Sequence record: DRR378314_1251
Reading direction: 5' to 3' (one strand)
DNA: 58,552 nucleotides
Under the pieces are notes generated by a model. It did not search any database and had not been told where the DNA came from. It worked only from the letters and a program-made list of their open reading frames with translations. Of the stretch, positions 35,628 to 58,466 are shown piece after piece. Every line of letters begins with the position of its first letter. The stretch's first letter is position 1. The position numbers and the translations under genes are program-made.

Positions 35628-37658
35628 TCACCAGTCAATCTCCGGCTCACCGACCCAGATGGGAGAACTCCATGCGCGCACAGGCCTGTCCTGAAGCGTG
35701 GGAATGGTCACGCGTATAGGCGCCGCCTGTTCTACGCGGGCATAATAGATCGCGTGCCCGACGGCTGGCGCCGTCCACTCTGCTTCGAAGTCCAGCCCCA
35801 GATCTCCGCTGCGATGAAACACCGGCTCCCACTCCGCATCTTCGCCGAACACGTAGCGGTAGACTTCAATCTCCGAGATGCCGGCCGTTCCATGAACTTC
35901 CAGCCGGAAATCAAGCTCCGTCACATCCTCTGAGAGAACACTGCCCATCGGCTGACCATTGGCAGAAAAGTCGAGCAGGATGCGCTCACCTGTCGTGCCA
36001 TACATGGCCCCGTCCCGCATGGATTGCAGGAGTGCGTCACGGGTTAGTTCAGGGGCCATGATAGCCGTTAGTCCGTTGGCGCGTTTGCCCGGCTGTCCGT
36101 TGTGATCGTCTGACGCCGCCAGCGTGAACAGCTTCATCCCCGCCGCCCAGGCGTCTCGCACATAATGCGCCCCGCGTTTCGACAGGGAAAAGCCGGGCGT
36201 ACTTCCCGCATTCTCATAGGATAGCGGGTCGGATGGGTCGTACATCTCACTCTGGCCGTGGGCGCTGAATATCTCGATGTGACGCATCTGTCGCGGGAAA
36301 CGGTGTGAGCCGTCAAAGTTCGCGCCGCCCCAGCCGATGCCTGTGTGATGCGTCGCGACAATCATCTGCTCTCGATCAATATCCTCTTCGAGCGCAGTCA
36401 ATTTGTCTTCGTTCATCCCCCTGCCCGCGCCATACCGTTGGCTTTCAATGGCAGGTCCGGAGCAAGTCGGAAAATAGCCATCCAGATGATAGCCGATACC
36501 GCCTTCGAACCCGAGGATCGTTACGAACTCGCCGGGCGCGTTGTATGACTCACACCAATCCTGGGTCTTTTGCCAGTATCCCGCTTCCAATCCAAACACA
36601 TGATTGGTTAGCGCCGCATAGTCGAGCGCGGAGACATCTCGCGCATATGTATAATGATCAGGATCCGCAAGCGAGCTCAACGCGTCCGCGCTCCAGGCAT
36701 TGTGAGAGTGCAAGTCTCCCCACCACGGCCCGTTCGGCGTGTCCGTAATCCGAACGGGATTGGACAAGGTGCCACTGACATCGAACCGATAGACGCCAGG
36801 TTCGTCAAGAGTGACGACGCGTTCAGCGCGTCCCGTGTACAAGATCATCTCATCAAGGACCTCTCCGTCCAGCGATAGATTCACGCTGTCTTCGCTGGCG
36901 GACAGATTGTCATACTTGTCGCGTGAAATGATCTCTATCTTGAACGGCTCACCCGGCCGTACAGATGACGGCACGATGACTTGCCGGGACGCTGTCGATC
37001 CTGCCTCTACGACAAAGGTCGGGTCCTGTGCCATGCGAACCTTGTTCACATCCACGCGCACCGGAAATGCCCCACTGGCGACCCAGGGCGTGGTGGTGGA
37101 ATAGGTCATGACGACTTCGCCGCCGGGCGGAATATCCGCGCCCTTCAGCACGGCCGTGACCCGCTGGCCGTGACGCTCTGCCGCCGCCTTTCCCACATCG
37201 TCAAACTGCAGCCTGCGGATGCGAAGACTGAATTTCGCCTTCGGTGCATCGGGCGACGTAACGGTGACCGTGTCCCAGAGCATGATCTCCCGCGTGTCAG
37301 CCCGGCCCGTAAATATGTAGCCGATCGCGACGCCGATCACGTCTACAATGGAAGCTGGCTTCTGCAAGGTTTTGGTAAGCGAGTAGCTGAGGTCATAGGT
37401 CAGCGCAGCATTGGGCAGCTGCGTACTGATATTCGAACCGCGCTTGAGACCATCCGGAAAGGCAACTCTGACGCGTATAGGCGCAGATACGTGGGCCGGC
37501 ATGACAGCAGGTTCCACAACGGCAGTAATGTTCGGATTGATCTCTTCCGCTTTCTTCTCGAAAGTTTCCATCCGGCTGATCCTCTGCCACAGGAAGCCCA
37601 CAATAAAGAGAACGGCCACGCCAATCAGAATGTACTTCGCAATACGACGTTTTTTCAT
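35628..37658 (-). CDS. Membrane-anchored DUF3604 / PHP-like metallohydrolase
   Basis: N-terminal TM; WGDLHSH...SAD, TNH, ASDDH, YGTTGERI and AWSSPIW motifs. Confidence 0.8.
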   Translation of the reverse strand: MKKRRIAKYILIGVAVLFIVGFLWQRISRMETFEKKAEEINPNITAVVEPAVMPAHVSAPIRVRVAFPDGLKRGSNISTQLPNAALTYDLSYSLTKTLQKPASIVDVIGVAIGYIFTGRADTREIMLWDTVTVTSPDAPKAKFSLRIRRLQFDDVGKAAAERHGQRVTAVLKGADIPPGGEVVMTYSTTTPWVASGAFPVRVDVNKVRMAQDPTFVVEAGSTASRQVIVPSSVRPGEPFKIEIISRDKYDNLSASEDSVNLSLDGEVLDEMILYTGRAERVVTLDEPGVYRFDVSGTLSNPVRITDTPNGPWWGDLHSHNAWSADALSSLADPDHYTYARDVSALDYAALTNHVFGLEAGYWQKTQDWCESYNAPGEFVTILGFEGGIGYHLDGYFPTCSGPAIESQRYGAGRGMNEDKLTALEEDIDREQMIVATHHTGIGWGGANFDGSHRFPRQMRHIEIFSAHGQSEMYDPSDPLSYENAGSTPGFSLSKRGAHYVRDAWAAGMKLFTLAASDDHNGQPGKRANGLTAIMAPELTRDALLQSMRDGAMYGTTGERILLDFSANGQPMGSVLSEDVTELDFRLEVHGTAGISEIEVYRYVFGEDAEWEPVFHRSGDLGLDFEAEWTAPAVGHAIYYARVEQAAPIRVTIPTLQDRPVRAWSSPIWVGEPEIDW

Positions 37659-37687
37659 AAAACTCCCTCCCCGGAGCTTATTTGAAA

Positions 37688-40600
37688 TCAGGGATTTGGA
37701 ACAGATTGAGTGACAAGGCGAACATCACCGATCAATCCGATCTTTGGATGCTTCTTCTCTCCAAGCCCTGCCATGAATTCCATTTTCGGTTCTTCACCGG
37801 ACTCTGCTCGCGCAACCAGTTCGTGGAACCGAGGCGGCGTTACGGTCAGTGTGATCTGGTTCTCGCCTGCGTAAAGCGCGGAGGAGATATTGATCTCATA
37901 CGGTGGCAGCACAAGCCGCCCCAAGTCGCTTCCATTCACCGAAACCGCCACGCTACCGTCGACGCGCTCCATCACCAGATAGATCGGACCCGGGATCTCG
38001 GACACAGAAGTGGTGGTTGAATAGACAAGCCCCGTCCCTTCGTCACGAAATCCTTCAAGGCTTGCCGCATCAACGAGTGGAGACTCCAACTCGGCCTCAA
38101 AGGTGCCAGCCTTCAGCGACCACTCTGTCAATGAAATGCCTTCGCCAATGGGCAACGACTCGTAGACGACAGCGCCGGGCAGTTCGCCGGGCGTCTCGAT
38201 CAGGAAGAGAGACGCCAGAGCCGGAAAGGCAAGCTCGACCTGCCCTTGGCCGGCTTCCTCAAATTTGAATGCCTGACCTGTTGTCGGATCAAATGCATAG
38301 AGACTGCTACCCTCATCCAGCGTCACGTCCACAGTCACGCGTGTCGCCGTCGCACTCTGGTTGGAGAGGAAGTGAATTGCGCTATCATCCGACTGAACAC
38401 GGGTAACCCGGCGTACAGTGCTGGCCCCGGCAAAGACGAAGTTTCCTTTCGCCCAGGCTTTCAACGCGCCCGCATCCGACAATGTACGGTTGGCTTCCAG
38501 CACGCGCATAATCTCGGCGATTTGGGCATCTCTCACCTGATGATCCAAATAACCTGGCTGACGGGTTGGTGTGCGCCCCATGATAGCGACGCGATCCGAT
38601 ATGGCCGAAAGCGCCTGGGCCGATTCCAGCTCGATCCACGGCGCATCAAACAACAGGATTTTCTGGTCCGCATTGAGCGTATCGAGACGATGCGTGAGTG
38701 CGTCATCATTTATCCAGGTCCATGTAATGCCACGCTCATCCAGTTCTTTCACGATCGGCATGAGGCGTTCGAGCCAAAGCGTGCTTTCCAGTTTCTCGAT
38801 CTCAGGCAGCTTGACGAAGGGAATGCTGCCACCTGCCTCTTTATCAGCGCGGTCGACTTCGTCGGGCATAGCGCCCATGAAGAGGAACAGATCCTTTGCT
38901 TGCTCGCTGATGGACAGCTCACTCGGGAATCCGAGGAATGGATAATAGATCAGGACGTCAGCATCTGGCTTACCTGCCTGTAGAAGGTTCTGTGAACGGA
39001 CCAGATAGGTGTTGATCTCTTCCAACGTATTCCAGATTGAGGATTCTGGCCCATAGTTTCCGGAATAATTGAACTCTCCGCCACTTCCGTGGAAGGGGTG
39101 CCAGCCCATTTCACCGAATGCCTCTGCATATTCTGGCCGATCGGAATCATAGGGCACACCATGATAGAGAATCTGGTTTACGCCAGACAGGAACAGCTTG
39201 TCTGCGGCCGCCTTGATCCGTGCCGGTGAAACCGCATAGCCCATTTCCGACCACACAAAGGATTCGCTTGCGATAACTGGTCGGTCATAGAGCAGTCCCG
39301 CAGCTCCCGCGAGCTTCAACGAGAACTCCGAACCGCCGCCATACAATTGCTCCATCTCCGGAATGTGATTGCGACCAAGTGCCTGAATCGCATCCAAATC
39401 CATTCCGTAGCTTTGGCCCTTGGACAGCAAGCCCCGGGCCTCTGCCCAATCCGCGCTCCCCCCAACGAAGCGATCCACGAGGAGATCAGAAATGGTCTTC
39501 TGATAATCGAAGCGAATGCGCTCGTCGTTTTCTGTTAGTTTGAAGCTTGGTGCCGCGTAGACCCGAGCCACGTCTCGCACATAGAAATTGTCGCGCACAT
39601 CGACGAAGACAGCAGGAATAAGGGGCGCAAGATCATATCCCCGACGGCTCTCGAACTCCTCCAGAATATCAGGCGTGCCCAGGCGGTCCGCCATAAATTC
39701 GATACTGTCATTGAAGAAGCCGGTGAACCCGTCGCCATAATGCGCGCTCAAACCTGTGCGCTCCCCAAACGCGTAGGCGTAGTGCCCGCTCAGGATTTCT
39801 GTATCCAGATGGTCCACAACGAAGCCGGAAGAATCCCCGGCCACAAGAACCGGTGCAGATCCGGAGGGCTGGCTCCACGCCGCAACAATGACCCATTCGC
39901 CTTCAGGCGCATCCCAGGACAGCCGACCATCCACAACGCGGTCTGTCAGGACAATAGCTGACGCACCGTCCAGCTCTACAGTGTCGGTTGCAACCATCGG
40001 ACTTCCGTCTCGCTTTCCGCCAATCTTTTTGGCCGCGACGACGCTTACCAGCTGGCCCAGCTCGGGCACAAAATTGTTCAGGTCTGCCCCGGGCGACGCA
40101 TGGCTGAACGCCATCTCGCCATAGGCCATCAGATGGTCCCCAAAGCCCGCTTTCGGTGCTGGCAGATCAAAACTGACCTCTCGGCCACCGGAAACTGTCT
40201 TCTCGGAGAAACGCAATTCCCGAAGTCCTTCATCAACCGGCACCTGTGGACCACCTGCCGGCCAACCGCTCAGATGGTTCAAGTACAAATCGAAGTTCAG
40301 GTCTGATGCACACGCCATGACTTCGGAGAGTTCGGCGTTGAATTCATCTGATCCGAACGATCGAATACTTGCCTGGATTTCGTCTGAATCAATATCGAGT
40401 CCCGCTGCGAACGCCTGAATCTCGACGCCGCCAAACCCTTTGGCATCAAAGGCTGCTAGCTGCGCGCATGCCGTCTCGGCCGAAACATCTCCACCGGGCC
40501 ACCACCACCGGGTCCACGGCCGGCGCTCCTCCGGCGGATGGGTCAGGGCTCCCGGTTGGGTCAGGTCCAGTTCATAGCTGAGATTGATCGCGCTTTTTGG

Positions 40601-40777
40601 TGCGCCGACCTGCTCCCGATACTCCAGCAAACTGCTCACCTCGGGATTATTATCCGGAAGCGTCATATGGGATTTGATCTTGCCATTCAGCCAGAACCAG
40701 CCAATCGCCACCGCGAGCAGTGCAAGCACGACAAGCGCCCCGATGCCGATTCCCAGCCACTTCAATATCCGGCCCAT
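37688..40777 (-). CDS. Glycoside hydrolase family 106 (alpha-L-rhamnosidase-like), N-terminally anchored
   Basis: RPWTRWWWPG, GFGGVEI, GWPAGGP, FNDSIE, FESRRGYDL and GVNQILYHG motifs. Confidence 0.85.
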   Translation of the reverse strand: MGRILKWLGIGIGALVVLALLAVAIGWFWLNGKIKSHMTLPDNNPEVSSLLEYREQVGAPKSAINLSYELDLTQPGALTHPPEERRPWTRWWWPGGDVSAETACAQLAAFDAKGFGGVEIQAFAAGLDIDSDEIQASIRSFGSDEFNAELSEVMACASDLNFDLYLNHLSGWPAGGPQVPVDEGLRELRFSEKTVSGGREVSFDLPAPKAGFGDHLMAYGEMAFSHASPGADLNNFVPELGQLVSVVAAKKIGGKRDGSPMVATDTVELDGASAIVLTDRVVDGRLSWDAPEGEWVIVAAWSQPSGSAPVLVAGDSSGFVVDHLDTEILSGHYAYAFGERTGLSAHYGDGFTGFFNDSIEFMADRLGTPDILEEFESRRGYDLAPLIPAVFVDVRDNFYVRDVARVYAAPSFKLTENDERIRFDYQKTISDLLVDRFVGGSADWAEARGLLSKGQSYGMDLDAIQALGRNHIPEMEQLYGGGSEFSLKLAGAAGLLYDRPVIASESFVWSEMGYAVSPARIKAAADKLFLSGVNQILYHGVPYDSDRPEYAEAFGEMGWHPFHGSGGEFNYSGNYGPESSIWNTLEEINTYLVRSQNLLQAGKPDADVLIYYPFLGFPSELSISEQAKDLFLFMGAMPDEVDRADKEAGGSIPFVKLPEIEKLESTLWLERLMPIVKELDERGITWTWINDDALTHRLDTLNADQKILLFDAPWIELESAQALSAISDRVAIMGRTPTRQPGYLDHQVRDAQIAEIMRVLEANRTLSDAGALKAWAKGNFVFAGASTVRRVTRVQSDDSAIHFLSNQSATATRVTVDVTLDEGSSLYAFDPTTGQAFKFEEAGQGQVELAFPALASLFLIETPGELPGAVVYESLPIGEGISLTEWSLKAGTFEAELESPLVDAASLEGFRDEGTGLVYSTTTSVSEIPGPIYLVMERVDGSVAVSVNGSDLGRLVLPPYEINISSALYAGENQITLTVTPPRFHELVARAESGEEPKMEFMAGLGEKKHPKIGLIGDVRLVTQSVPNP

Positions 40778-40851: not shown

Positions 40852-42708
40852 TCAAAGGCGCAGCGCACCCTCGGCCAGCGCATCCCGGTCCGAGATGGTG
40901 TACGGCCTGTAGCTCTTTTCCCGTTCGTCCAGAATGAAAACGCCATCCACGTTCGCAAGCCCGTCAATGCCCTGCTTGACCAAATCCACTTTGGACAGCT
41001 TCAACGTCCCCGTTGTGTTGTGGCCGTCGACGATACGCAGAAAGACGGGCCGTGCATATGACGGCAAATGCTTTGCAATCTCTTCGTATACAGATGCCAC
41101 TGAGAACGTCTCATCGACCGACACAGCCGCCATTCCCGCTTTGCCGTCAAACCCTGGGACCGGCACGCCGAACACATTGGCAATGGTCACCCCCGGAACA
41201 TGGGACATCACTTCCGCGACCTCTGTGGTCGATACATTTTCCGACTTCCAGCGGAATGTATCGCCAACCCGGTCCACAAAATAGAAACGTCCCATCCTGT
41301 CCCGGCGCATCAGGTCACCCGAACGGAACCAGGCATCATTTGCTTCAAATACATTGCGCAGGATCTTCTTCTCAGTCGCGGATTTGTCGCTATACCCCTC
41401 AAAACTGTTGCGGGTTTCCGTCTGCTTGATTGCACCAATGGCCTCGCCGGGCTCGTCTATATCTGCCTCCATGCAGAGGCCGTCAGGCGCACGAAGGATC
41501 TCACCTGTAACTGGGTCGGTCTTCACGATCCTTATCAACATCTGCTTACGGATGATGGGAGGTACACAGCCCACCGACCCAATCGTTCCATCCAGATTGA
41601 TGAGAGAGATGTTACCTTCTGTTGATCCGTAGAATTCGAACAATTGCTTGATGCCCGTTCGGTTTACAAATTGCCGCCAAACATCAGGCCGCATGCCATT
41701 CCCGAGGCCGCGGGTCATCTTGTGCGTCCGCTCCGCGTCGCTGGGTGGCTGGTTCATCAGGAACCGCCCAAGCTCTCCAACATAGATGAACATGGTCGCG
41801 CCATAATCGCGGGCCTCTTTCCAGAAGGCGCTGGCCGAGAATTTGCGACGCAAGAGGATTGCGGCCCCCGTGGTCAACGCAATGCCCACACCGCAGACGC
41901 CGGTTGTCCCGTGATAGAGCGGGAGCGTCTCGTAGATCACATCATCAGGCCCGACCTGGCACGGGGTCGCGAAACTGCGCATCATGATCAGGCATCGCGC
42001 ATGGGTCATCTTCGCTGCCTTGGGCAGGCCAGTGGTGCCGGATGTGTAGATCAGAAGCGCGACATCCTTGCCCCGCAAGGCATCCCTTTGAGATCGGTCA
42101 GGGCGATCCGAGGAAAGAGTTTCGAGCCAGTTGGAGAACGTGCTGCCCGGATCAAGAATTTCGACAGGCACACTGCTGTCTACCAGATCGGCGCGAATGT
42201 CCCGCACACGGGCGTCCAGCTCCTGACAGGTAATGATTGCCCTGGCTTCAGCCACGTTAAGACAATGCGTCAGGCCGGTGCCAGACAGGTGCGAATTGAT
42301 CAGCGCCGTTATCACACCAATCTTCGACAGGCCGAACCACACCGCGACATAGTCCGGTCGGTTGTCCATGAATAGGGCGACCGTGTCTCCGGGCTTCAGC
42401 CCTATATTCTGCCCCCAGGCCGCTATCCTGTTCGCCCGCGCCTCAAGATCGGCATAGGTGGAGCGCGCGCCTTCAAAGATAAAAGCGGTGTTGTCCGCGA
42501 AGCGATCAACCGTGCCTTCAAGAACGTCCGGGATCAGCACCGACCCATGCGGCGTGAAAGCTTTGGTGTCCTGATCGATCTGTCGGAGCTTTGCCGTATA
42601 GACAATCTGCTTCCACAAGCGGGAAAGTGCGCCGCCATCACGACGATCAGATTGGTCCGCAGGCTTGGCACCCCGCTTCGCAAGCGACAAATCCAAAGCT
42701 TCCTCCAC
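40852..42708 (-). CDS. Long-chain acyl-CoA synthetase (FATP-like)
   Basis: IYTSGTTGLPKAA, YGSTEGN and FVDRVGDTFRWKSENVST motifs. Confidence 0.93.
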   Translation of the reverse strand: MEEALDLSLAKRGAKPADQSDRRDGGALSRLWKQIVYTAKLRQIDQDTKAFTPHGSVLIPDVLEGTVDRFADNTAFIFEGARSTYADLEARANRIAAWGQNIGLKPGDTVALFMDNRPDYVAVWFGLSKIGVITALINSHLSGTGLTHCLNVAEARAIITCQELDARVRDIRADLVDSSVPVEILDPGSTFSNWLETLSSDRPDRSQRDALRGKDVALLIYTSGTTGLPKAAKMTHARCLIMMRSFATPCQVGPDDVIYETLPLYHGTTGVCGVGIALTTGAAILLRRKFSASAFWKEARDYGATMFIYVGELGRFLMNQPPSDAERTHKMTRGLGNGMRPDVWRQFVNRTGIKQLFEFYGSTEGNISLINLDGTIGSVGCVPPIIRKQMLIRIVKTDPVTGEILRAPDGLCMEADIDEPGEAIGAIKQTETRNSFEGYSDKSATEKKILRNVFEANDAWFRSGDLMRRDRMGRFYFVDRVGDTFRWKSENVSTTEVAEVMSHVPGVTIANVFGVPVPGFDGKAGMAAVSVDETFSVASVYEEIAKHLPSYARPVFLRIVDGHNTTGTLKLSKVDLVKQGIDGLANVDGVFILDEREKSYRPYTISDRDALAEGALRL

Positions 42709-42880
42709 TTTTTCTCCACTTGTAATCTTTTTATCTGATCGCTAAGCTCGCGCAACAGATCACAAATGGCAATTGTAATTTTCTCCAATTGAAATTATTT
42801 CTGTTTGAACCGGTCGGCAACAGGCTTGGCAAAAATATTTACGGGAGGATGTCGGCCGCTTGCGCCGACATTGGCACTTT

Positions 42881-44269: not shown

Positions 44270-44287
44270 AAGGACCCCGCACGCCCT

Positions 44288-46439: not shown

Positions 46440-47096
46440 ATGACAAATTCGAAAACGGCCACGAAAACACCCCAGCAACCCGTGCAAGCACGAGCCATCG
46501 AGACGCGCGCCCGAATCATTGAAGTCGCGATGAAAACCTTCGCGGAACGCGGATATGACGGGGCCAACACGCGCGACATTGCGGACGAGGCTGGCGCGAC
46601 GCATGGCGCGATCCGCTATCATTTTGGCACGAAAGAAGAGCTCTGGAAGAAAACCATCGAGACGATGTTCCACCAGCTACGCATGGACGTCTATGGTGAG
46701 GACGGCACGGAACTTTTGAACATAAAAAATCCCGTCAAAAGCATGCGGGAGTTCCTGTCGCGCTATATCCGCTATTCGGCAAACAACCCTGACCATGCAC
46801 GCATCATGATTTCAGAATCCGTGCGCGGCGGCCCGCGGCTCGAGTGGATGGCAGAAAACTTCATCAAGCCTGCCCACAAGATCCTGATGAAGGAAACACA
46901 GAAACAGATCAAATCAGGACTGCTGCCCGATCTGCCACCGGTTTCGATGTTCTACATTATCGTTTCAATGTGTCAGATGCCCTTTGTCCTCTCCAAGGAA
47001 ATCAAGCTTCTCCACAAACTCGATCTGAAAAAAACTCCAGCGATTGAGCAGCACATTGATGCTGTCATGGCTGTACTGGTGCGCAGCGGACGCTAA
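46440..47096 (+). CDS. TetR/AcrR family transcriptional regulator
   Basis: FAERGYDGANTRDIADEAG...IRYHFGTKEEL. Confidence 0.95.
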   Translation: MTNSKTATKTPQQPVQARAIETRARIIEVAMKTFAERGYDGANTRDIADEAGATHGAIRYHFGTKEELWKKTIETMFHQLRMDVYGEDGTELLNIKNPVKSMREFLSRYIRYSANNPDHARIMISESVRGGPRLEWMAENFIKPAHKILMKETQKQIKSGLLPDLPPVSMFYIIVSMCQMPFVLSKEIKLLHKLDLKKTPAIEQHIDAVMAVLVRSGR

Positions 47097-47139: not shown

Positions 47140-47163
47140 AAAACATTTCCATTGAAATGTTTT
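47140..47163. promoter_or_regulatory. Perfect 10-4-10 inverted repeat, candidate TetR operator
   Basis: AAAACATTTC-CATT-GAAATGTTTT upstream of the esterase gene. Confidence 0.6.
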
Positions 47164-49037: not shown

Positions 49038-49069
49038 CCAGGCTGGAGCGGAATCGCGCTCCAGCCTGG
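49038..49069 (+). terminator. 13-bp perfect hairpin after the esterase gene (terminator or stability element)
   Basis: CCAGGCTGGAGCG-N6-CGCTCCAGCCTGG; no U-tract. Confidence 0.5.
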
Positions 49070-49267
49070 GGCCACCCTCCACATCTCTGCCACACCTGCC
49101 ACACATTACTTAAAAACTCGCCCAAGCCAAAAAGATTGCACTTGACATGTTTTTAGGTTTCGGAGCATCGTCCCCTCACGAAATCAGCTGCTGAACGCAA
49201 CGTCGGACAGCGGATTAGAAAAGATGGGCCAACGGCCCCGCACACGTTGTGCGAAGGGAGGAAAATT

Positions 49268-51928
49268 ATGGGAAACATCCAGCGCAAGCTGTTACTTTCG
49301 TCTGTCGCTCTGGCGAGCACGGGATTCGTCGCGCCTATCGCTATGGCTCAGGACGCGACTGATGCGCCACCTGCGGTCACAGACGAGGCGTCACGTGAAC
49401 TCGACACCGTCACGGTTACCGTTTCTACCGGCACCCTGCTTCGCGGCGTCAGCCCCGTTGGCGCCAACGTGCTCAGCATCGACCAGGAAGCCATTGCCGA
49501 GATCGCACCGGCATCTTCCATCGACCTGCTGGCCCGCGTTCCGCAGGTGACGAACACCTTCAATACGCTGCCAACCGCACTAGGCAATGTCGGCGTACCA
49601 TTCCCGCGACCCAACATCCGAAATCTTGGAAACGCCGGGTCAGACACTACACTGACGCTTCTCAATGGCCACCGGCTGGTCGGCTCAGGCGCGCTACAAT
49701 CTGCGCCAGATGTCACAACGATTGCACCAGAAGTTCTGGGCCGCCTGGAAGTTGTCGCGAATGGTGGGTCGGCCACCTATGGTTCTGACGCTGTCGGCGG
49801 CGTGATCAACTTCATCACACGAAACGAGATTGACGGTATTGAAGCCAGCTACCGGCACGGTTTCGGCGACAAGTACAAATCCTCTGACGCCTCTCTCTCA
49901 CTCGGTAAGGTATGGGAGTCAGGTGATGCGTACATCACGCTCAACCATACGAATAATGATGAAGTATACGGTCGAGATCGCGACTATGTTCAGCAGGACC
50001 ATACGTCTCGCGGTGGCGATGACTTCCGTGTTTTGAATTGTTCGCCCGGACATATTACGCTTGGCGACATCAATTTCTTTCTGCCAAACCGCCTGCCGGG
50101 CGAGAACCGTTGCGCTGAGACTGACTTCACGACCCTGTATCCCGAACAGGAAAACACACGTGCTTTCGCCAACCTCACCCAGTCATTTGGTGAGTCTCTC
50201 GTATTCGACGTTACGGCTTATTACTCAGACCGCGAAGTCACCAACCAAGGTGGAGGACTGCTTCTGGGAACAGGCCTCAGCGGCAGCGGCCTGATTACCG
50301 CAGCCAACCCGTTTTTCCAGACCATTGTAGGAGAGCCCGCCCACCAGGTTAGCTTCAGTTATGACGAAGTCTTTGGGACTAATACGGAAGAATTCACGAC
50401 AAACCTGAGTGCATGGGGGATTACGCCCAAACTTTCCTGGAAGATCAATAATTCCTGGAATCTAACCTCGTCACTGAATTACGGTAAGAGCGACAATGAG
50501 ATCCTCGAACCCAAGATCAACCCGGCGCTTCAAGCCGCAGCGCTGGCTTCCTCAAACCCACTAACTGCGCTGAACCCCTATGATCTCAGCCAAACAAATC
50601 CGGCAGTTCTCGCAGCTTTGCGTGACTACACAACGGGCGGCGTTTCAGAACAGGAATTGTTCCAGATCCGGTCCGTATTGGACGGCGATGCGTTCGAATT
50701 GCCGGCCGGAACCGTCAAGCTGGCAGTGGGCGCGGAATACACCGAGGAATCTCTGGACGCCGCAATCCTGGAAGGAACACGCAGTGATCCAACGCGCTAT
50801 GAAGCAAACCCTTCTCGCGAGATCACCTCCTTCTTCGGAGAAGTTCTGGTTCCGATCCTGTCTGAAGACTCCGGCACCGGTAGCCTTGAGGTGTCCTTGG
50901 CAGCCCGTCACGACTCCTACAGTGATGCGGGTGACACGACAAATCCGCAAGTCGGTTTCAACTACAAGCCAATTGAGGATCTGACCATTCGCGGATCCGT
51001 CGGCACATCGTTCAATGCGCCTTCGCTAAACGACTCTGTCGGCGGGGCAGATCTGCGCTATCAAATCATTCCGGTCAGCCCGGTACGCGCCCCGGACTCG
51101 CTGCCGACCGACCTGTTCCGTCCCACGGTCGTGGTCGCTGGGTCAAATCCTGACATAAAGCCTCAGGAAGCTGACACGATGACCATCGGTTTCGACTGGG
51201 CCCCTTCAAGCGGCGCATTTGAGGGATGGCGCACAAGCCTGACCTACTACAAGGTGGACTTCAAGAACCAGATCGCTGTGCCGCCTATTCTTGAGCCAGC
51301 ATTCTTCCTGACGCCGGCCTATGATAGCTTGTACGATATCAATCCGACACTTGAGCAGGTGCTGGCACGTGCGGGCGACCTTCGGGTCGAAGGGCTGCCG
51401 AACATCGCCACCGTGTTCGCAACATCTTCTCCATACGTCGTTCTGGACGCGCGCCGAATTAATCTCGGTTCAGTCGAAACTGATGGCCTTGATTTCGAAG
51501 TCAGCTACTTGCACCCGACCGACATGGGCGCCTTCTATTCCAGCCTCGGCGGAACCTATGCGCTCAATCGCGATGTTACCCCCTTCGAAGGCGCATCTGC
51601 CTCCGATGGACTGGAATTTGGCGTCAGTCGGCTGAAAGCTGTTGCCACGTTCGGCTGGCATGCAGACCGCTTTGATACGACCGTCCGCATCAATCATAAC
51701 TCCGGATACGACGCAAACCCGACAGCTAGCGTGGACGGCTTCACGACTGTCAACTACTATGCTGGCTACGATTTGCCGACGCCGGACTATGTCGACGAAC
51801 TCAAACTGACGCTGAATGTCGACAATCTCATCGACGAAGATCCACCATTCTTCGCGGATGGTGATGGCTTCGCGAACGGGTCCACCCTCGGTCGCGTTAT
51901 CTATCTCGGCCTGAAAGCAAAGTTCTAA
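49268..51928 (+). CDS. TonB-dependent receptor
   Basis: Signal peptide, DTVTVT TonB box, TLTLLNGHR, YGSDAVGGVINFIT, C-terminal Phe; GGGAGG RBS. Confidence 0.95.
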   Translation: MGNIQRKLLLSSVALASTGFVAPIAMAQDATDAPPAVTDEASRELDTVTVTVSTGTLLRGVSPVGANVLSIDQEAIAEIAPASSIDLLARVPQVTNTFNTLPTALGNVGVPFPRPNIRNLGNAGSDTTLTLLNGHRLVGSGALQSAPDVTTIAPEVLGRLEVVANGGSATYGSDAVGGVINFITRNEIDGIEASYRHGFGDKYKSSDASLSLGKVWESGDAYITLNHTNNDEVYGRDRDYVQQDHTSRGGDDFRVLNCSPGHITLGDINFFLPNRLPGENRCAETDFTTLYPEQENTRAFANLTQSFGESLVFDVTAYYSDREVTNQGGGLLLGTGLSGSGLITAANPFFQTIVGEPAHQVSFSYDEVFGTNTEEFTTNLSAWGITPKLSWKINNSWNLTSSLNYGKSDNEILEPKINPALQAAALASSNPLTALNPYDLSQTNPAVLAALRDYTTGGVSEQELFQIRSVLDGDAFELPAGTVKLAVGAEYTEESLDAAILEGTRSDPTRYEANPSREITSFFGEVLVPILSEDSGTGSLEVSLAARHDSYSDAGDTTNPQVGFNYKPIEDLTIRGSVGTSFNAPSLNDSVGGADLRYQIIPVSPVRAPDSLPTDLFRPTVVVAGSNPDIKPQEADTMTIGFDWAPSSGAFEGWRTSLTYYKVDFKNQIAVPPILEPAFFLTPAYDSLYDINPTLEQVLARAGDLRVEGLPNIATVFATSSPYVVLDARRINLGSVETDGLDFEVSYLHPTDMGAFYSSLGGTYALNRDVTPFEGASASDGLEFGVSRLKAVATFGWHADRFDTTVRINHNSGYDANPTASVDGFTTVNYYAGYDLPTPDYVDELKLTLNVDNLIDEDPPFFADGDGFANGSTLGRVIYLGLKAKF

Positions 51929-52061
51929 TCGGTCCCAAATGGAGAAAGGCAGTCAAATCTCCAAAACTTGACGGAGTTTGCGTCCATACCGGATGCAAAC
52001 TCCCTTTTTTCCGTCACCCCATCTCCAGTTACGTCCTCCCACAAACATCAAGGAGCTTCCC

Positions 52062-54170
52062 TTGAGCGACACCCCCCCAAACTACGCCCCCCGGAAAGGC
52101 CTCAGCGAGGCTGAAATTCGGGAGATGGTTGAAGGCGTCATCAAGGACGCAACCCTCGAAGAAAAAGTCGCCATGATGTCTGGACGGGGATTCATGGAGT
52201 CCATGCAACGAACCAATAATCGCTGGGGCGCAGAACCTTACCAGGCAGGTGGCGGATGCGAACGGCTGGGCGCACCAGCCTTTTACTTCACAGATGGCCC
52301 TCGCGGCGTAGCCCGCGGCAATTCAACGTGTTTCCCCACAACGATGGCCCGCGGCGCAAGTTGGGACTGCGACCTGGAACAACGCATTGGCGAGGCAATG
52401 GGCAAGGAAATCCGCGCCCAGGATTGCAATCTTTCCGGCGCGGTGTGCATCAATCTGCTGCGCCATCCGGGATGGGGCCGCGCGCAGGAAACCTATGGGG
52501 AAGACCCTTATCATCTCGGTGAGATGGGGGCAGCATTGTCCACAGGTATCCAGACCCACAATGTCGCCGCAACGGTCAAACATTTCGCTGTAAATTCAAT
52601 CGAGAACTCGCGTTTCAAGGTCGATGTCAAAGTCGATGACCGGACGTTGCGCGAAGTCTACTTGCCCCATTTTAAACGCGTACTCGACTCCGGCTGCGCA
52701 ACTGTGATGAGTGCGTACAACAAGATGAATGGTGAGTATTGCGGCCAGAATCACGACCTGCTCACAAACATCCTGCGCGGTGAATGGGGTTTTGAAGGCT
52801 TCGTCCACTCAGACTGGATTTTCGGCGTATACAAACCTTATGGAGCGGCTGCGGGGCTCGACGTAGAAAACCCGGAGCCGATCTATTTCGGGCAAAACCT
52901 CATCAAGTCTGTCAAGAAAGGCGCGGTCGCACCGAGTGTAATCGACACGGCCTGTCGGCGAATCCTGACCACCGCCTACAAACTTCTAGCGGCTGAAGAT
53001 CCATTTGAAGCCTACACGATTGATATGGTGGCAAATGAGGAGCATGTAGCGCTAGCGCGAGAAGCAGCTGAAAAATCTGCTGTGCTTCTGACCAATAATG
53101 GCGTCCTGCCTCTCAGGAAATCCAGCAACGTCTCGGTTTTCGGTAGCTTGGCGACAATCGCCAATACGGGGGATCACGGTTCCTCCACGGTCAGGCCGCC
53201 TCATGTGGTTACGCCCCTTCAAGGTCTTTCCACATATGTCGGACGCGACCTGACTTTGGCCGGCGACGAAACCGATCTCGAACAAGCTGCCGCCGCAGCG
53301 CGGGATGCCGAGATCGCAATCGTTATTGTCGGCACCACTGCAGATGACGAAGGCGAGTACATCCCAGGAAATCTGAGTACGCAATCCGAAACATCGGAAG
53401 AAAAGTCCGCCGAAAACGCCGGACCTCTCGGGAGCGGCAAGGACCGCGGTGGAGACCGACGCAAACTACGCCTGCCCGACCATCAGCAAGCGCTTGTTGA
53501 CACGGTCACCGAGAATAACCCGAACACAATCGTCGTGCTTGTTTGCGGATCGGCAATCATTTGTGATTGGGCCGATAAGGCGGGAGCCATCTTGCAAACT
53601 TTCTATGCGGGTATGGAAGGCGGCACTGCACTGGCAAACCTCCTTTATGGCGAAGTAAATCCCTCCGGAAAGCTGCCCTTCTCTGTTGCGTATTCAGAAG
53701 CCGATTACCCGTTCTTTGATCCAGATGCTGATGAGATCGAATACGGCCCACTCCACGGATATACGCTTCTTGAGAGCACGGAAACCGAGCCGATGTTCCG
53801 GTTCGGCCATGGCTTGTCGTACACACAGTTCAGTTACCGCGCCCTGAAGGCTCACACTACGGCGGAAGGGATCGATGCCGAAGTCACGTTGGTCAACACG
53901 GGCGACACCGCCGGAACAGAAATTTCTCAGCTCTACATCGGCTTCCCGGGGGATCTGGTTTATCGCCCGAACAAATTGTTGCGCGGCTTTGAACGTATTA
54001 CCCTTGCCCCCGGCGCGCGAAAGACAATCCGTTTCCACGTGCCGCTGGAACAGTTGAAATACTATGATACCAGCACTGGCAATTGGCGGATCGAGCCGGG
54101 CACGCACACGATCCATGTCGGCGGAACCAGCGATCCGGCAGCTCTGTTGAATGCCAGCGTGACGATATGA
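52062..54170 (+). CDS. Second GH3 beta-glucosidase-like enzyme without signal peptide
   Basis: Same GH3 motifs (DGPRG, KHFAVN, HSDW, FGHGLSYT); TTG start with AAGGAG RBS. Confidence 0.93.
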   Translation: MSDTPPNYAPRKGLSEAEIREMVEGVIKDATLEEKVAMMSGRGFMESMQRTNNRWGAEPYQAGGGCERLGAPAFYFTDGPRGVARGNSTCFPTTMARGASWDCDLEQRIGEAMGKEIRAQDCNLSGAVCINLLRHPGWGRAQETYGEDPYHLGEMGAALSTGIQTHNVAATVKHFAVNSIENSRFKVDVKVDDRTLREVYLPHFKRVLDSGCATVMSAYNKMNGEYCGQNHDLLTNILRGEWGFEGFVHSDWIFGVYKPYGAAAGLDVENPEPIYFGQNLIKSVKKGAVAPSVIDTACRRILTTAYKLLAAEDPFEAYTIDMVANEEHVALAREAAEKSAVLLTNNGVLPLRKSSNVSVFGSLATIANTGDHGSSTVRPPHVVTPLQGLSTYVGRDLTLAGDETDLEQAAAAARDAEIAIVIVGTTADDEGEYIPGNLSTQSETSEEKSAENAGPLGSGKDRGGDRRKLRLPDHQQALVDTVTENNPNTIVVLVCGSAIICDWADKAGAILQTFYAGMEGGTALANLLYGEVNPSGKLPFSVAYSEADYPFFDPDADEIEYGPLHGYTLLESTETEPMFRFGHGLSYTQFSYRALKAHTTAEGIDAEVTLVNTGDTAGTEISQLYIGFPGDLVYRPNKLLRGFERITLAPGARKTIRFHVPLEQLKYYDTSTGNWRIEPGTHTIHVGGTSDPAALLNASVTI

Positions 54171-54256
54171 TTTCGAGGGCTAGCCTGAGAACGTGGCTCA
54201 AACGGGTTGGGCTTGCTCCACTGCTGATCGACATTGACCCTTCCTGACCGCCAATC

Positions 54257-55453
54257 CTACGGCCGCCAAAGCAAGCCTTCGAGCGCGACAGCGATGTTCG
54301 TACGGTTGCCGTCTGCCAAGGCCTGAGGAAGCAAATCATTCACCCTGTCCAATTGCCGATTGAGTGTATTTCGGTGAATGCCAAGCTGGTCGGCCGTATA
54401 CGCCGCATTACAGCCCTGTTTCAGATATGTGAGGAGGTTGTGCTTCAAATCCTCCGGCGCCCTGAGCAAGTCTCCGAGGACATCAGACGCAAACCGCTGA
54501 AACGCGCCATCATCCGGGATCAAGACTGTTTGAAGCCTGACCAGATCATGGTCCGCAACGCGTCGCCCATTCCGCGCCCCCGCGAGAATATTGCGCACAA
54601 TGCGCGCAGAGTTTGCACTTTCCAGAAACCCGGCAAACCCCTGCCCCAAACGTCCGATCGCCACCATTACGCCGTCCGGACACTCCGACTCCAGTTCGGC
54701 AGCCTGGATCTGCTTGTCAAAGCAAAGAAATATGGAGCTTTCGCCCTCCTCAACGCGCAGCCCCGGCGCGTGCCCCAGAACCTGTACTATCTGATCTGTC
54801 GCGCGGTTTACCAGGGCGCTATCAGGCTGCACATCCATCGCCCAAATTCGAACAACTGTGTGGCTGCGATCAAAACGATACCCCAGCCTTTGACCAGCGG
54901 AAAACGGATCCCCCAATTTCCCGCTCAATACCTGTTGCAGCACTTCTCGCTGTAAAGCCGGCGCCCCTTTCGCGAGTTCAGCCCGTTCTGCATCGATGAA
55001 TCTCGAGAGGATCGCTAAAGCCGCATCAGTATAGTCACCAATGCTGCGCGCCGAACGATCCAGAACGGCCTGAAGCTCGTGTTTGTCAGATGTCAGGTCA
55101 AAGACGATCCGCATCCAGCGGCGCCAGGTGATATTCTGCGCAACCCGATACCCGTTCAGCGAAATATCAAGTTCTCCCTTGCGCACTTGCTCGCGAATGA
55201 TGGCGTACAATTCCGAAGAGATAACCGGTGTGATCGGCCCGTTCGGATCTGACAGAATGGAATTGGCCCAGTGCATTACGCCAATCAGGTTTTCTCGCCG
55301 GATGACGCTTTCAACGAAGGGCAAATTGTCAGACTCGATAGCGGTGACCACGGCCTTGCCCACCTCATCGCGCCAGGATTGCGGCGCCTTCAGCACACGC
55401 TCTGCGCCTTGTCGCAATAGCTCGTCCACGCGCTCATCGAAACTGTTCATCAT
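54257..55453 (-). CDS. PucR/CdaR family transcriptional regulator
   Basis: C-terminal HTH NAAYTADQLGIHRNTLNRQL; divergent from the monooxygenase. Confidence 0.88.
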   Translation of the reverse strand: MMNSFDERVDELLRQGAERVLKAPQSWRDEVGKAVVTAIESDNLPFVESVIRRENLIGVMHWANSILSDPNGPITPVISSELYAIIREQVRKGELDISLNGYRVAQNITWRRWMRIVFDLTSDKHELQAVLDRSARSIGDYTDAALAILSRFIDAERAELAKGAPALQREVLQQVLSGKLGDPFSAGQRLGYRFDRSHTVVRIWAMDVQPDSALVNRATDQIVQVLGHAPGLRVEEGESSIFLCFDKQIQAAELESECPDGVMVAIGRLGQGFAGFLESANSARIVRNILAGARNGRRVADHDLVRLQTVLIPDDGAFQRFASDVLGDLLRAPEDLKHNLLTYLKQGCNAAYTADQLGIHRNTLNRQLDRVNDLLPQALADGNRTNIAVALEGLLWRP

Positions 55454-55479
55454 GCACTCACTATACCCTGAAAAGGTGT

Positions 55480-55491
55480 GATGTGCACATC
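55480..55491. promoter_or_regulatory. Palindrome GATGTGCACATC, candidate operator
   Basis: Perfect 12-bp palindrome nested in GTGTGA...TCACAC between divergent regulator and monooxygenase genes. Confidence 0.45.
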
Positions 55492-55538
55492 CCATTTCAC
55501 ACGGAACTAATGGATCGTGTGGTCTGATGGAGGCCTCT

Positions 55539-57014
55539 ATGCCAATTGAAACCGATCCCGCTTTCTCTGTTGAACCGATTGATGTGCTGATCATAGGGGC
55601 TGGTATCTCTGGAATTGGCTGCGCGTGCTACCTGCAGCGTGAACTGCCCGGCAAGAGCTGGGAAATTGTGGAAGCGCGTGAGACGTTTGGCGGGACCTGG
55701 GACTTGTTCAAATATCCAGGCATCCGCTCGGACTCCGATCTCTACACCTTCTCCTACGACTTCAAACCCTGGACCAGTCCGAACGCCCTCGCATCGGCCG
55801 AGGAGATCATGTCCTATCTCAAGGAAGCCGCCGAAGAGCACAACGTGCTGGAGCGGATCTCCTATAATCGGAAAGTCGTCAGCGCGTCGTGGGAAAGTGA
55901 TGAAGCGTTGTGGACAGTCACAATCGAAAACAGCCAGACCGGCGCGCGCGAGACCCGCAAATGCCGCTGGCTTTTCGGCGCGACCGGTTACTATGACTAT
56001 GACAAAGGCTTCCGACCAGCGTTCGAGGATGAGGATGCCTTTCACGGCCCCAAGATCCACCCTCAATTCTGGCCTGAAGACTTCGACTATTCCGGAAAGC
56101 GCGTTGCCATAATCGGAAGTGGAGCCACCGCGGTCACGCTGGTACCCTCCATGACAGACAAGGCTGCACATGTCGTTCAGGTCCAACGCACCCCGACCTA
56201 TATCATGCCGCGCCCCAGACAGGACAAGGTGGCGCTTTGGTTAAAAAAATGGTTGCCGCCCAAGGTCGCCTATGGGCTGACCCGTTGGAAAAACACGCGC
56301 GTACAGCGCTGGTTCTATCTGTACTGCCAGAAATTCCCTGACCGCGCGCGGCGACTGATCCGCAAGCTGAACCGCCAACACCTGCCAGCTGACTATCCCG
56401 TGGATGTGCATTTCAAGCCACCTTACAATCCGTGGGACCAAAGGCTCTGCGCTGTTCCGGATGCGGACTTCTTCAAGGATATTTCTGCCGGGCGGGCATC
56501 TATCGTGACCGGTCATATTGAACGGTTTACACCTGCCGGAATTCAGATGAAGTCGGGCGAACATGTAGATGCAGATGCGATCATCATTGCGACCGGCCTG
56601 AAGCTAAAGATGATGGGCGGCATCGACTTCACCGTAGACGGAAAACCGGTCGACGTATCTGATCACCTGGTTTTCAAAGGCCTGATGCTCGACGGTATCC
56701 CAAACTACAGTTTCGCGATCGGCTACACCAATTCCTCCTGGACTTTAAAAGTTGGGCTGGTGTGCGGCTATCTCTGCAAACTGCTGAAGGAAATGGACCG
56801 CCAGGGCAAAACAGTCTGCATTCCTCGACGCCCTGAAGGGGAGATCGTTACACGGCCCTTGATGGATTTTGGCGCCGGCTACGTCAAACGCGCGGTCGCT
56901 TCAATGCCGAAACAGGGAGATGATTATCCGTGGGAGATGTCGTCTGACTACACGACAGATATTGCCCTGTTCAAACGGGGCAAGGTGATCGACCCGGCCC
57001 TGGAGCTTTTCTAG
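55539..57014 (+). CDS. Flavin-containing monooxygenase, AlmA/EthA-like Baeyer-Villiger family
   Basis: GAGISG, GGTWDLFKYPGIRSDSD, FHGPKIHPQFWP, GSGATA and YNPWDQRLC motifs; ATG 55539 with GGAGG RBS. Confidence 0.93.
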   Translation: MPIETDPAFSVEPIDVLIIGAGISGIGCACYLQRELPGKSWEIVEARETFGGTWDLFKYPGIRSDSDLYTFSYDFKPWTSPNALASAEEIMSYLKEAAEEHNVLERISYNRKVVSASWESDEALWTVTIENSQTGARETRKCRWLFGATGYYDYDKGFRPAFEDEDAFHGPKIHPQFWPEDFDYSGKRVAIIGSGATAVTLVPSMTDKAAHVVQVQRTPTYIMPRPRQDKVALWLKKWLPPKVAYGLTRWKNTRVQRWFYLYCQKFPDRARRLIRKLNRQHLPADYPVDVHFKPPYNPWDQRLCAVPDADFFKDISAGRASIVTGHIERFTPAGIQMKSGEHVDADAIIIATGLKLKMMGGIDFTVDGKPVDVSDHLVFKGLMLDGIPNYSFAIGYTNSSWTLKVGLVCGYLCKLLKEMDRQGKTVCIPRRPEGEIVTRPLMDFGAGYVKRAVASMPKQGDDYPWEMSSDYTTDIALFKRGKVIDPALELF

Positions 57015-57059
57015 CCATTCCAACCGCCAATCCAGCTCAAGACATTCAGGATACGTCAG

Positions 57060-57926
57060 ATGATCAAGACATATGCAGGCAAGACTTGCGTCGTCACCGG
57101 TGCCGGCAGTGGTATCGGTCGGGAGTTGGCCCTCGCACTGGCACGCGCCGGCGCTCGTCTGGCAATTTCGGACATTGACCCTGTCGGCCTCGATGAAACC
57201 CAACAGATGCTGCACGCAGAGGGCGTGCAACTGCACAGTCAAATTCTGGACGTGTCCGACAGCGCTGCGATCTATGCCTACCCCGATGCCATTCTCAGCA
57301 AGTTTGGCGCAATCCACCAACTTTACAACAATGCCGGAATATCCGGTGGCGGACGTTCCATAGCCGACACGCCTTTGGAAACCATCCAGAAAGTCATCGA
57401 CATCAACCTGATGGGGGTTCTGCACGCCTCGCGCGCCTTCATGCCCCACCTGGAAAGCAGCGGTTCAGGGATTCTCGTCAATATCTCCAGTCTGAATGGC
57501 CTCGTCGCGCAGCCGAACGTCGCCATCTATTGCACGACGAAGTTTGCGGTCCGTGGCCTTACAGAAGCCATCCGGACGGACGCCCTGTTTTCCGGCGCGA
57601 ATCTGCAGGTGGTCGTGGTCCACCCTGGCGGCGTCAAAACCAACATCGCCAAAGCGAAGGAAGCAGATCTCGCAAAGATGACGCCAGAAGAACGCGAGCA
57701 GGCTTTGAAAGTACTGTCGGTCTACGAAAAGAAATTCCTGACTTATCCAGCCGATGCCGCGGCGATGGATATCCTCAACGGCGTTGCCAAGGGCAAGTGC
57801 CGTATCATTGTCACGCCGCAGGCCAAGCATTTGGACCGGCTCGCGCGCCTGCTGCCTGCATCCTATCCGAAGATCATTTCCAACGCGACGAAACGCATTC
57901 AACGCAAGCTCACTTCCAAAGCCTGA
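57060..57926 (+). CDS. Short-chain dehydrogenase/reductase
   Basis: TGAGSGIG, NNAG and YCTTK motifs. Confidence 0.95.
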   Translation: MIKTYAGKTCVVTGAGSGIGRELALALARAGARLAISDIDPVGLDETQQMLHAEGVQLHSQILDVSDSAAIYAYPDAILSKFGAIHQLYNNAGISGGGRSIADTPLETIQKVIDINLMGVLHASRAFMPHLESSGSGILVNISSLNGLVAQPNVAIYCTTKFAVRGLTEAIRTDALFSGANLQVVVVHPGGVKTNIAKAKEADLAKMTPEEREQALKVLSVYEKKFLTYPADAAAMDILNGVAKGKCRIIVTPQAKHLDRLARLLPASYPKIISNATKRIQRKLTSKA

Positions 57927-58031
57927 ATTCACGGCACCCCTCAAAACCCACTTGCCTTTGGGGCATCGGCGACGCGCCTGAATCTGTTTGCTAAGTCTGC
58001 TTCGAAAGCATCAAGTTTCGGAGCATCACAC

Positions 58032-58466
58032 ATGTCGATCTGGAAAAATGGGGTCCCACAACCGCAATATCTCACACATTACGAGACACCTACCCTGGTT
58101 GAACACCTCGGGATCGAAGTCATTGACGCAACAGAAAATTCGCTGACCGCCAGGATGCCTGTTGATGGCCGCACGGTTCAGCCTCACGGCCGGCTGCATG
58201 GTGGCGCGTCAGTGGCCCTGGCAGAAACCGTTGGCTCTATTGCGGCCAACCTTACGCTTGATTCCAACGAACAGGTCGGTGTCGGTCTTGAAATCAATGC
58301 CAACCATATCCGCCCGGTCATGAGCGGATACGTGTATGCGACGGCAACCCCAGAGGCGCTGGGCCGAACAACTCAGATCTGGTCTATCCGCATCGAGGAT
58401 GAGGATGGACGACTGGTCTGTATTTCGCGATTTACCGTAGCGGTCATCCCGGCCAAACGCGCCTGA
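58032..58466 (+). CDS. Hotdog-fold acyl-CoA thioesterase (PaaI/MenI-like)
   Basis: QPHGRLHGGASVALAE and GLEINANH motifs. Confidence 0.93.
   Translation: MSIWKNGVPQPQYLTHYETPTLVEHLGIEVIDATENSLTARMPVDGRTVQPHGRLHGGASVALAETVGSIAANLTLDSNEQVGVGLEINANHIRPVMSGYVYATATPEALGRTTQIWSIRIEDEDGRLVCISRFTVAVIPAKRA

Follow-up and report, generated by a model that had tools for sequence, protein, structure and literature searches.

An apparent cluster for import and cleavage of ester-decorated glycosides in a marine Hyphomonas, and its partial link to neighbouring genes of fat metabolism

Do genes for the cleavage of sugars and genes for the metabolism of fat serve a common purpose when they lie side by side in a bacterial genome? 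The question is raised by sequence record DRR378314_1251, a stretch of 58.5 kb (58,552 nucleotides, here called the window), in which 13 genes occupy the 22.8 kb from 35628 to 58466. A preliminary description had listed them as a TonB receptor, a transporter and glycosidases interleaved with lipid enzymes and had read them as one locus. Each of the 13 was found in its place as a long open reading frame (ORF), and the families then named agree with profile scans of Pfam and NCBIfam. The topic is not trivial. Glycolipids and acylated glycosides, such as biosurfactants, algal and bacterial membrane glycolipids and saponins, are a large and poorly tracked marine carbon pool.

The host appears to be a marine Hyphomonas, and the region a cluster for the import and cutting of ester-decorated sugar compounds, to which the neighbouring genes of fat metabolism belong only in part. 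The esterase shares 100% identity with a protein named in NCBI from Hyphomonas atlantica, and the G+C content stays between 55 and 63% across the region without a sharp break. The region does not form a single operon but is pieced together from at least five transcription units. The explanation that we favour, with slightly better than even confidence, is a TonB-dependent uptake and hydrolysis core for an ester-decorated beta-glycoside, with a synthetase unit attached and a PucR-controlled module standing apart. It is built on protein families, N-terminal locations, an operator-like site and partial synteny; what the substrate is, how the genes are regulated and what the synthetase does are inferred. 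Within it, the esterase-coupled module for glycoside import and hydrolysis is well founded, the synthetase/GH106-like/DUF3604 unit is probably attached to the core, and a glycolipid whose aglycone is sent to lipid catabolism is possible.

The core genes and their shared operator-like site

In the best-supported core, a TetR regulator is joined by a GPH symporter, a TonB-dependent receptor, a type-B carboxylesterase of lipoprotein type and two paralogs of glycoside hydrolase family 3 (GH3) that lack signal peptides. Its features are:

42710-42800, no strand: divergent promoter region with two 22-nt direct repeats (42710-42731 and 42779-42800; 82% alike)
42860-44269, plus strand: GPH-family glycoside:cation symporter of the inner membrane (TIGR00792)
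44288-46393, plus strand: GH3a exo-glycosidase, 701 amino acids (three GH3 Pfam domains)
46440-47096, plus strand: TetR-family regulator (Pfam, NCBIfam)
47140-47163, no strand: perfect 10-4-10 palindrome, candidate TetR operator
47212-49029, plus strand: lipoprotein type-B carboxylesterase, 605 amino acids from ATG 47212 (the ORF opens at 47152)
49038-49069, plus strand: hairpin with a perfect 13-bp stem, likely a terminator, directly 3' of the esterase stop
49130-49153, no strand: second operator-like site, 19/24 identical to the palindrome, upstream of the receptor
49247-51928, plus strand: TonB-dependent outer-membrane receptor with plug and barrel domains; likely ATG 49268 after AGGGAGG
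51973-52003, plus strand: 13-pair hairpin with T-run, 3' of the receptor stop, overlapping the mechanical TTG start of GH3b
51978-54170, plus strand: GH3b exo-glycosidase (Pfam); true start probably downstream of 51978

The esterase matches PF00135 (COesterase) with 323 bits. Its N-terminus, MKRIRTLSIALIAGLALGAC, is a lipobox with ALGAC at residues 16-20, and of 40 aligned homologs at least 90% retain its cysteine, C20; the enzyme is accordingly a predicted bacterial lipoprotein. The nucleophile motif GQSAG lies at residue 229, and S231, E376 and H461 are invariant in the 40 homologs. The symporter reaches 349 bits with TIGR00792, the cut-off of which is 231. The two GH3 enzymes share 49% identity, and neither carries a signal peptide. 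Both contain the N-terminal, C-terminal and Fn3-like domains above the Pfam cut-offs and an SDW motif, presumably the site of the Asp nucleophile, at residue 250 in GH3a and 278 in GH3b. Neither reaches the cut-off of a specific NCBIfam equivalog; the best solved relatives of GH3a are the beta-glucosidases 8j9f and 7ms2. The mechanical TTG start of GH3b, at 51978, falls inside the hairpin behind the receptor gene. Nothing in GH3a corresponds to the first ~40 residues counted from there, so that translation probably begins further downstream.

What ties these genes together? The GPH and GH3a genes are co-directional on the plus strand with a gap of 18 bp and diverge from the synthetase gene over 151 bp. 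The TetR gene follows GH3a after 46 bp and adjoins the esterase gene, and hairpins mark the unit ends behind the esterase (perfect 13-bp stem) and the receptor (13 pairs and a T-run). Downstream of the TetR stop and ahead of the esterase start lies the palindrome AAAACATTTC-CATT-GAAATGTTTT, which overlaps a TTGAAA box resembling a -35 element. In both strands of the window, scanned with up to 7 mismatches, the 24-bp palindrome has one other match, the site upstream of the receptor gene, with 5 mismatches; a match at 5 mismatches or fewer was seen in 0 of 2000 shuffles of the 3.8 kb of intergenic sequence. Because the palindrome is common to the promoters of esterase and receptor, both are tied together as a probable TetR regulon. 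Most likely, the adjacent TetR would repress at least these two promoters by putative binding to the shared palindrome. The solved relatives of this TetR match its DNA-binding domain only or are uncharacterised. A scan for the sigma-70 consensus was uninformative, with fewer matches (6) than in shuffles (9.1).

The core may then work as follows. The receptor would carry an ester-decorated beta-glycoside across the outer membrane, the lipid-anchored carboxylesterase would remove acyl groups in the periplasm, the symporter would bring the remaining glycoside to the cell interior, and the two cytoplasmic GH3 paralogs would cleave it there. Of the import and dismantling of amphipathic glycosides, as originally proposed, the part that combines a glycoside with an ester is supported; the substrate class, be it rhamnolipid, glucolipid or saponin, cannot be named by computation.

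The minus-strand unit: GH106-like hydrolase, DUF3604 protein and acyl-CoA synthetase

The three genes to the left of the core are co-directional, with gaps of 74 bp and 29 bp:

40852-42708, minus strand: FATP-like long-chain acyl-CoA synthetase, 618 amino acids (PRK08279/NF006134)
37688-40777, minus strand: divergent glycoside hydrolase of family 106 (GH106), 1029 amino acids (PF17132)
35628-37658, minus strand: DUF3604/PHP-fold metal hydrolase, 676 amino acids (Pfam, NCBIfam, Atlas, fold match)

The GH106-like enzyme is a divergent member of its family. It scores 154.9 bits with PF17132 (cut-off 29), stays below the equivalog NF049897 (200 versus 1300 bits) and matches PDB entry 6q2f with an E-value of 7e-22. 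In HMMER alignments its D357-S358-I-E360 falls on ..DSIE506 of RHA-P, while E505 and E476 fall on E593 and E561 of BT_0986. For BT_0986, an excerpt of the published work names E461 as the acid, E593 as the base and D458, S459 and E561 as calcium ligands (PMC6828813). These positions of catalytic acid, base and calcium ligands are present in the Hyphomonas protein, and rhamnosidase activity is predicted only. Its N-terminus is a single hydrophobic anchor. As its relatives carry cleavable signal peptides, the catalytic domain should face the periplasm, where this membrane-anchored, rhamnosidase-like enzyme would trim the glycan.

Its relatives are of two kinds. More distant, though full-length, are a Hymenobacter glycosyl hydrolase (29% identity over 951 amino acids), with an arabinofuranosidase and an acetylesterase as neighbours, and a hydrolase (28%) in a plasmid locus of Sphingomonas parapaucimobilis (L081), which reads rhamnonate genes-MFS-receptor-GH3-GH106like-GH78. 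The closer homologs, with 32-47% identity, come from marine Henriciella, Citromicrobium, Parasphingorhabdus, Halioglobus/Haliea and Aestuariicella. Judged by sequence, the enzyme sits in a marine subfamily of its own.

Another type of substrate has to be considered. The GH106-like and GH3 enzymes might strip the sugars from glycosides of plant or algal metabolites, such as saponins or flavonoid rhamnoglucosides, with TetR sensing the hydrophobic aglycone. The arabinopyranosidase of one GH3 model acts on ginsenoside, and that model is the best NCBIfam match of the GH3 proteins, albeit with a score far under its cut-off. Matches also occur in 'Tom' Sphingobium strains. The example for this idea is the adjacent set SpGH3-1, SpGH106-1 and SpGH78-1 of Sphingobium, which acts on steroidal saponins, SpGH106-1 having 1,2-alpha-L-rhamnosidase activity on them, as stated in the excerpt of PMC10653915. 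However, the identities amount to only 27-29%, neither GH78 nor rhamnose catabolism was found in the window by Pfam, the host is a marine bacterium, and esterase and synthetase would be left without a role. We consider this explanation quite unlikely.

The DUF3604 protein is the product of the last gene of the unit. It is assigned by Pfam (35.7 bits, cut-off 20.4), by the NCBIfam model of CehA/McbA metallohydrolases (48 bits) and by the Atlas, where 29 of its 30 nearest clusters are DUF3604. It starts with a single hydrophobic membrane anchor (MKKRRIAKYILIGVAVLFIVGFLW). The AlphaFold model, made from an alignment of 51 sequences, has a pLDDT of 89.4; its best PDB fold is 3e38, a PHP-like phosphoesterase, with a probability of 1.00, and the remaining matches come from beta-sandwich domains. 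H317, H319, E462 and H519 are invariant in the 51 sequences and probably are the metal ligands. The enzyme would thus be a PHP-fold hydrolase working beside the GH106-like one, with no substrate assigned. The plasmid contexts of DUF3604 in Agrobacterium and Pseudosulfitobacter contain only transporters and GntR regulators and give no clue to the substrate. DUF3604 is a family without a known function; in the search listing it is mentioned by only two papers, neither of which, to judge from that listing, seems to deal with what it does.

The synthetase passes the equivalog cut-off of PRK08279 (NF006134) with 669.3 versus 625 bits. A midpoint-rooted FastTree of the window protein and 119 of the 120 listed matches (the fish protein P0336 was left out) places it in a clade of 14 rows with SH-like support of 100, which also includes Henriciella litoralis, Ponticaulis sp. 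and two proteins known from contigs only. The synthetases of H. johnsonii and other Hyphomonas fall outside this clade; the protein is a distinct paralog. Does it travel with the other genes? Coinciding longest_contig values in three protein searches were taken as co-residence, not as adjacency. Matches of esterase, GH106-like enzyme and synthetase share a longest contig of 165,080 bp. Esterase and synthetase coincide at 35,801 bp and, in Ponticaulis, at 584,689 bp; GH106-like enzyme and synthetase at 290,765 bp and, in Henriciella, at 3,042,077 bp; esterase and GH106-like enzyme at 82,994 and 1,247,635 bp. These sequence data are suggestive of a link between the synthetase and the esterase and GH106-like genes. 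In function, the FATP-like synthetase might trap a released fatty acid as acyl-CoA.

Extended to its limits, the idea would be a hitherto undescribed TonB-dependent scavenging system for glycolipids or acyl-glycosides in Hyphomonadaceae of the sea and in some further marine Proteobacteria. An amphipathic glycoside would enter through the receptor, the lipoprotein esterase would free the fatty acid, and the FATP-like paralog would trap it by vectorial acylation; the membrane-anchored GH106 subfamily and the DUF3604 PHP hydrolase would trim the head group before import by the GPH symporter and cleavage by the cytoplasmic GH3 enzymes. We regard this as tentative and rather doubtful. In the literature searched, no TonB-dependent locus of this design for glycolipids or acylated glycosides was found. 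If the module, and especially the synthetase/GH106-like/DUF3604 unit, does act on such compounds, it would provide a first function for DUF3604 and for the marine GH106 subfamily.

Conservation, neighbouring modules and the limits of the locus

Other genomes were scanned with the alignment of 40 esterase homologs, and the 10-kb flanks of the best 80 of 598 confirmed relatives were inspected. All of these relatives have 49% identity or less; the closest ones (79-82%) are not among the 80 loci. Fourteen window proteins, i.e., those of the 13 genes and of a gene for a thiamine-diphosphate (TPP) enzyme at 33219-35606, were compared with the 80 loci by tBLASTn. A Pfam scan of the neighbours covered 97 of 139 ORFs, with L037, L045, L053 and L036 left out.

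The most similar arrangement is that of H. beringensis (L009), which reads sulfatase and GPH on the minus strand, then TetR, receptor, GH3 and COesterase on the plus strand. Identities are 52% for TetR, 54/46% for GH3 (54% to GH3b) and 40% for GPH; there is one GH3 gene, as opposed to two in the Hyphomonas window. Elsewhere, Novosphingobium capsulatum (L043) has a canonical GH106 (1029 bits) in the order GH106-LacI-GH3-COesterase, and a locus of Caulobacteraceae (L072) reads COesterase-LacI-GH3. These sequence comparisons support a place for the esterase among the sugar genes, because it shares an operator-like site with the receptor, adjoins TetR, recurs in the H. beringensis set and is found beside GH3 elsewhere, and because relatives of the GH106-like enzyme occur in receptor-GH3-GH106-GH78 loci. 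Is the grouping, then, more than chance? Partly so: a search for conservation of the cluster had been named as a check, and the set of esterase, GH3, GPH, TetR and receptor appears to recur in H. beringensis, while the remainder was not seen within 10 kb in the best 80 of 598.

Two side observations on these loci may be added. The sulfatase of H. beringensis (L009 1487-3232, minus strand) lies downstream of GPH, has a lipoprotein-like signal and hints at a sulfated glycoside there. In metagenome-assembled genomes of Pseudomonadales (L005, L014 and L032), a carboxylesterase of 38-39% identity is accompanied by a GPH-family transporter, a family III CoA-transferase and Amidohydro_3, i.e., GPH appears in a non-glycosidase context; the transferase of L005 is without a Pfam match, and GPH of L014 is known from tBLASTn alone.

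A number of results weigh against the favoured explanation. Within 10 kb of the esterase, a GH3 homolog was seen in only 5 of the 80 loci, a raw count; GPH was seen in 4 and TetR in 1. Homologs of the synthetase, DUF3604, this type of receptor, PucR, monooxygenase and thioesterase were found in 0/80 loci each, as was the GH106-like enzyme at the tBLASTn thresholds chosen. SDR homologs occurred in 13 loci, at low identity and of a generic kind. The esterase of H. beringensis is only 35% identical, its receptor is of another type without a BLAST match, and neither a similar operator nor, within 10 kb upstream of the esterase, synthetase, GH106-like enzyme or DUF3604 was found there; this locus may be a paralogous module. 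The closest esterase relative among the best 80 (L007, 45%) has unrelated neighbours. Three further loci of the Hyphomonadaceae type show no such neighbours either, by tBLASTn and Pfam in L016 and L021 and by tBLASTn in L037. The coincidences of contigs mean co-residence, not adjacency, and three of the contigs measure 0.58-3 Mb; in a close relative, the cluster of an 84%-identical synthetase lists 1,507,387, the clusters of esterase and GH106-like enzyme 1,868,386. Finally, the scan of the window found no full operator copy in the synthetase/GPH intergenic region.

A shorter motif, CNNTTGNNATNNTTT, is common to three promoter regions, including the one between synthetase and GPH, and has 5 matches against 0.38 expected. 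Outside the region it matches once, at 15240-15254 (minus strand), at the end of ORF 14449-15369, for which Pfam gave no match. We rejected it as evidence for a regulon, since it had been defined post hoc from the sites matched and resembles a -35 box; this, too, does not help the favoured explanation.

Type-B carboxylesterases often prefer short acyl groups. For this reason, the ester may be an acetyl and not a fatty acid ester. The cluster could then be an ordinary alphaproteobacterial TonB-dependent locus for acetylated, feruloylated or plain rhamno-, gluco- or xylo-oligosaccharides, its esterase a deacetylase and all lipid genes, synthetase included, chance neighbours. Such loci usually contain receptor, GH3, GPH and GH106; BD-FAE, a family of feruloyl/acetyl-xylan esterases, is a further match of the esterase, with 35 bits; at a distance of 35-45 kb upstream, beside a type II secretion operon, there are a GH9 enzyme and a second receptor; and the synthetase lacks homologs in the 80 related loci, as already mentioned. 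Yet endo-acting enzymes, lyases and genes of sugar catabolism were not found in the locus by Pfam, its regulator is of TetR and not of LacI type, both GH3 enzymes are without signal peptide, and the synthetase is a distinct paralog co-resident with homologs of the GH106-like enzyme and the esterase. We rate this reading as unlikely, if far from absurd. Should the esterase merely be a deacetylase, the cluster is one of the ordinary kind for carbohydrate utilisation, and its neighbours are unrelated to it.

The ester-decorated glycoside that we prefer as substrate leaves the four genes at the right end to be explained:

54257-55594, minus strand: PucR regulator of the Rv1453 family (NF050824); true start probably near 55453
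55527-57014, plus strand: type I Baeyer-Villiger flavin monooxygenase of EthA/AlmA size (fingerprint; relatives)
57060-57926, plus strand: SDR oxidoreductase (Pfam, NCBIfam)
58032-58466, plus strand: hotdog-fold thioesterase (TIGR00369); the window ends 86 bp beyond

PucR matches NF050824 with 265 bits and is divergent from the monooxygenase-SDR-thioesterase genes. Read as its longest ORF, the gene extends 68 bp over the start of the monooxygenase gene. Residue 54 is the first one covered by the profile, and MMNSF, with a possible start, is found at residue 48; the gene probably starts near 55453, so that ~73 bp are left for the divergent promoter region. The monooxygenase has the Rossmann motif GAGISG at residue 24 and, at residue 172, FHGPKIHPQFWP, which conforms to the Baeyer-Villiger fingerprint FxGxxxHxxxW[P/D]; its nearest solved relatives are Baeyer-Villiger monooxygenases (BVMOs). 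By its sequence it is classed as a type I BVMO, and as a member of the EthA/AlmA group by fingerprint and size, not by comparison with EthA or AlmA. On plasmid pA21d2 of Rhodococcus fascians (L086), a PucR of 32% identity is likewise divergent from a flavin monooxygenase of 54% identity. An alpha/beta hydrolase follows there, in place of the SDR and the hotdog thioesterase of Hyphomonas, and no glycosidases were found beside the pair on that plasmid. In a PucR context on a plasmid of P. aeruginosa, no monooxygenase was found.

Could all 13 genes nevertheless form one glycolipid catabolic system, with the aglycone processed by monooxygenase, SDR and thioesterase? They are contiguous over 22.8 kb and the enzymatic logic is plausible. 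Against it stand the separate PucR regulator, the lack of an operator copy near its module, the count of 0/80 for homologs of PucR, monooxygenase and thioesterase, and the PucR-BVMO pair that is conserved on its own in Rhodococcus. This possibility appears very remote. We treat PucR, BVMO, SDR and thioesterase as an independent module of ketone or ester oxidation, separate from the core, because it has its own PucR, because the 80 loci lack PucR, BVMO and thioesterase, and because Rhodococcus has the pair without glycosidases. Of the single locus that was thought to feed an aglycone into lipid catabolism, with sugar and lipid genes conserved and regulated together, the esterase stays, by virtue of operator and synteny; for the synthetase, clade and co-residence are suggestive; PucR, monooxygenase, SDR and thioesterase drop out.

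Further upstream, the window contains the following. The TPP enzyme gene at 33219-35606 (plus strand) runs towards the DUF3604 gene, the two stops being 21 bp apart; its product is an E1/transketolase-like protein of 795 amino acids that is far under every equivalog cut-off (aceE 159 versus 860). Directly upstream of the 13-gene region, at 20901-32141 (minus strand), a type II secretion operon comprises GspC, D, E, F, several small ORFs without Pfam match, J, K, L, M and N. The genes at 10824-13182 belong to the general stress response of Alphaproteobacteria and encode a PhyR anti-anti-sigma response regulator (10824-11600) and a GAF-HWE/HisKA_2 histidine kinase; the PhyR gene fits an alphaproteobacterial host. 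The stretch 3681-10786 holds a GH9 endoglucanase (299 bits), two ORFs without Pfam match (5682-6458 and 6474-8093) and the second TonB-dependent receptor (8582-10786). It may be a separate beta-glucan uptake cluster, the products of which could also feed the GH3 enzymes. Rhamnose catabolic genes had been reported as missing, and the 28 upstream ORFs scanned, 8 of them without Pfam match, indeed include none.

Comparison with known systems

How does the locus relate to what has been described? For the GH106-like enzyme, BT_0986 (5mqm) and RHA-P (6q2f) are the best points of reference: they belong to the same Pfam family, and the positions of acid, calcium ligands and base align. The canonical GH106 of Novosphingobium capsulatum is ~24% identical, in the barrel only. 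Unlike BT_0986 and RHA-P, the Hyphomonas enzyme has a membrane anchor in place of a signal peptide.

With Sphingobium sp. RC1, the likeness is one of description, not of sequence: SpGH3-1, SpGH106-1 and SpGH78-1 combine adjacent GH3 and GH106 enzymes with an amphipathic glycoside as substrate, and the excerpt of the source mentions neither esterase nor TonB receptor (PMC10653915).

As a whole, the region comes closest to alphaproteobacterial TonB-dependent carbohydrate-utilisation (CUT) loci such as L081 of Sphingomonas parapaucimobilis, which, like the Hyphomonas window, groups an outer-membrane receptor and a sugar transporter of the inner membrane with GH3 and an enzyme of the GH106 family. 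Compared with L081, the window is without GH78 and without rhamnose catabolism; compared with loci of this type in general, it has TetR instead of IclR or LacI, adds a lipoprotein carboxylesterase and keeps its GH3 enzymes in the cytoplasm. The locus thus differs in make-up from the known TonB-dependent carbohydrate-utilisation loci, yet it is of their type.

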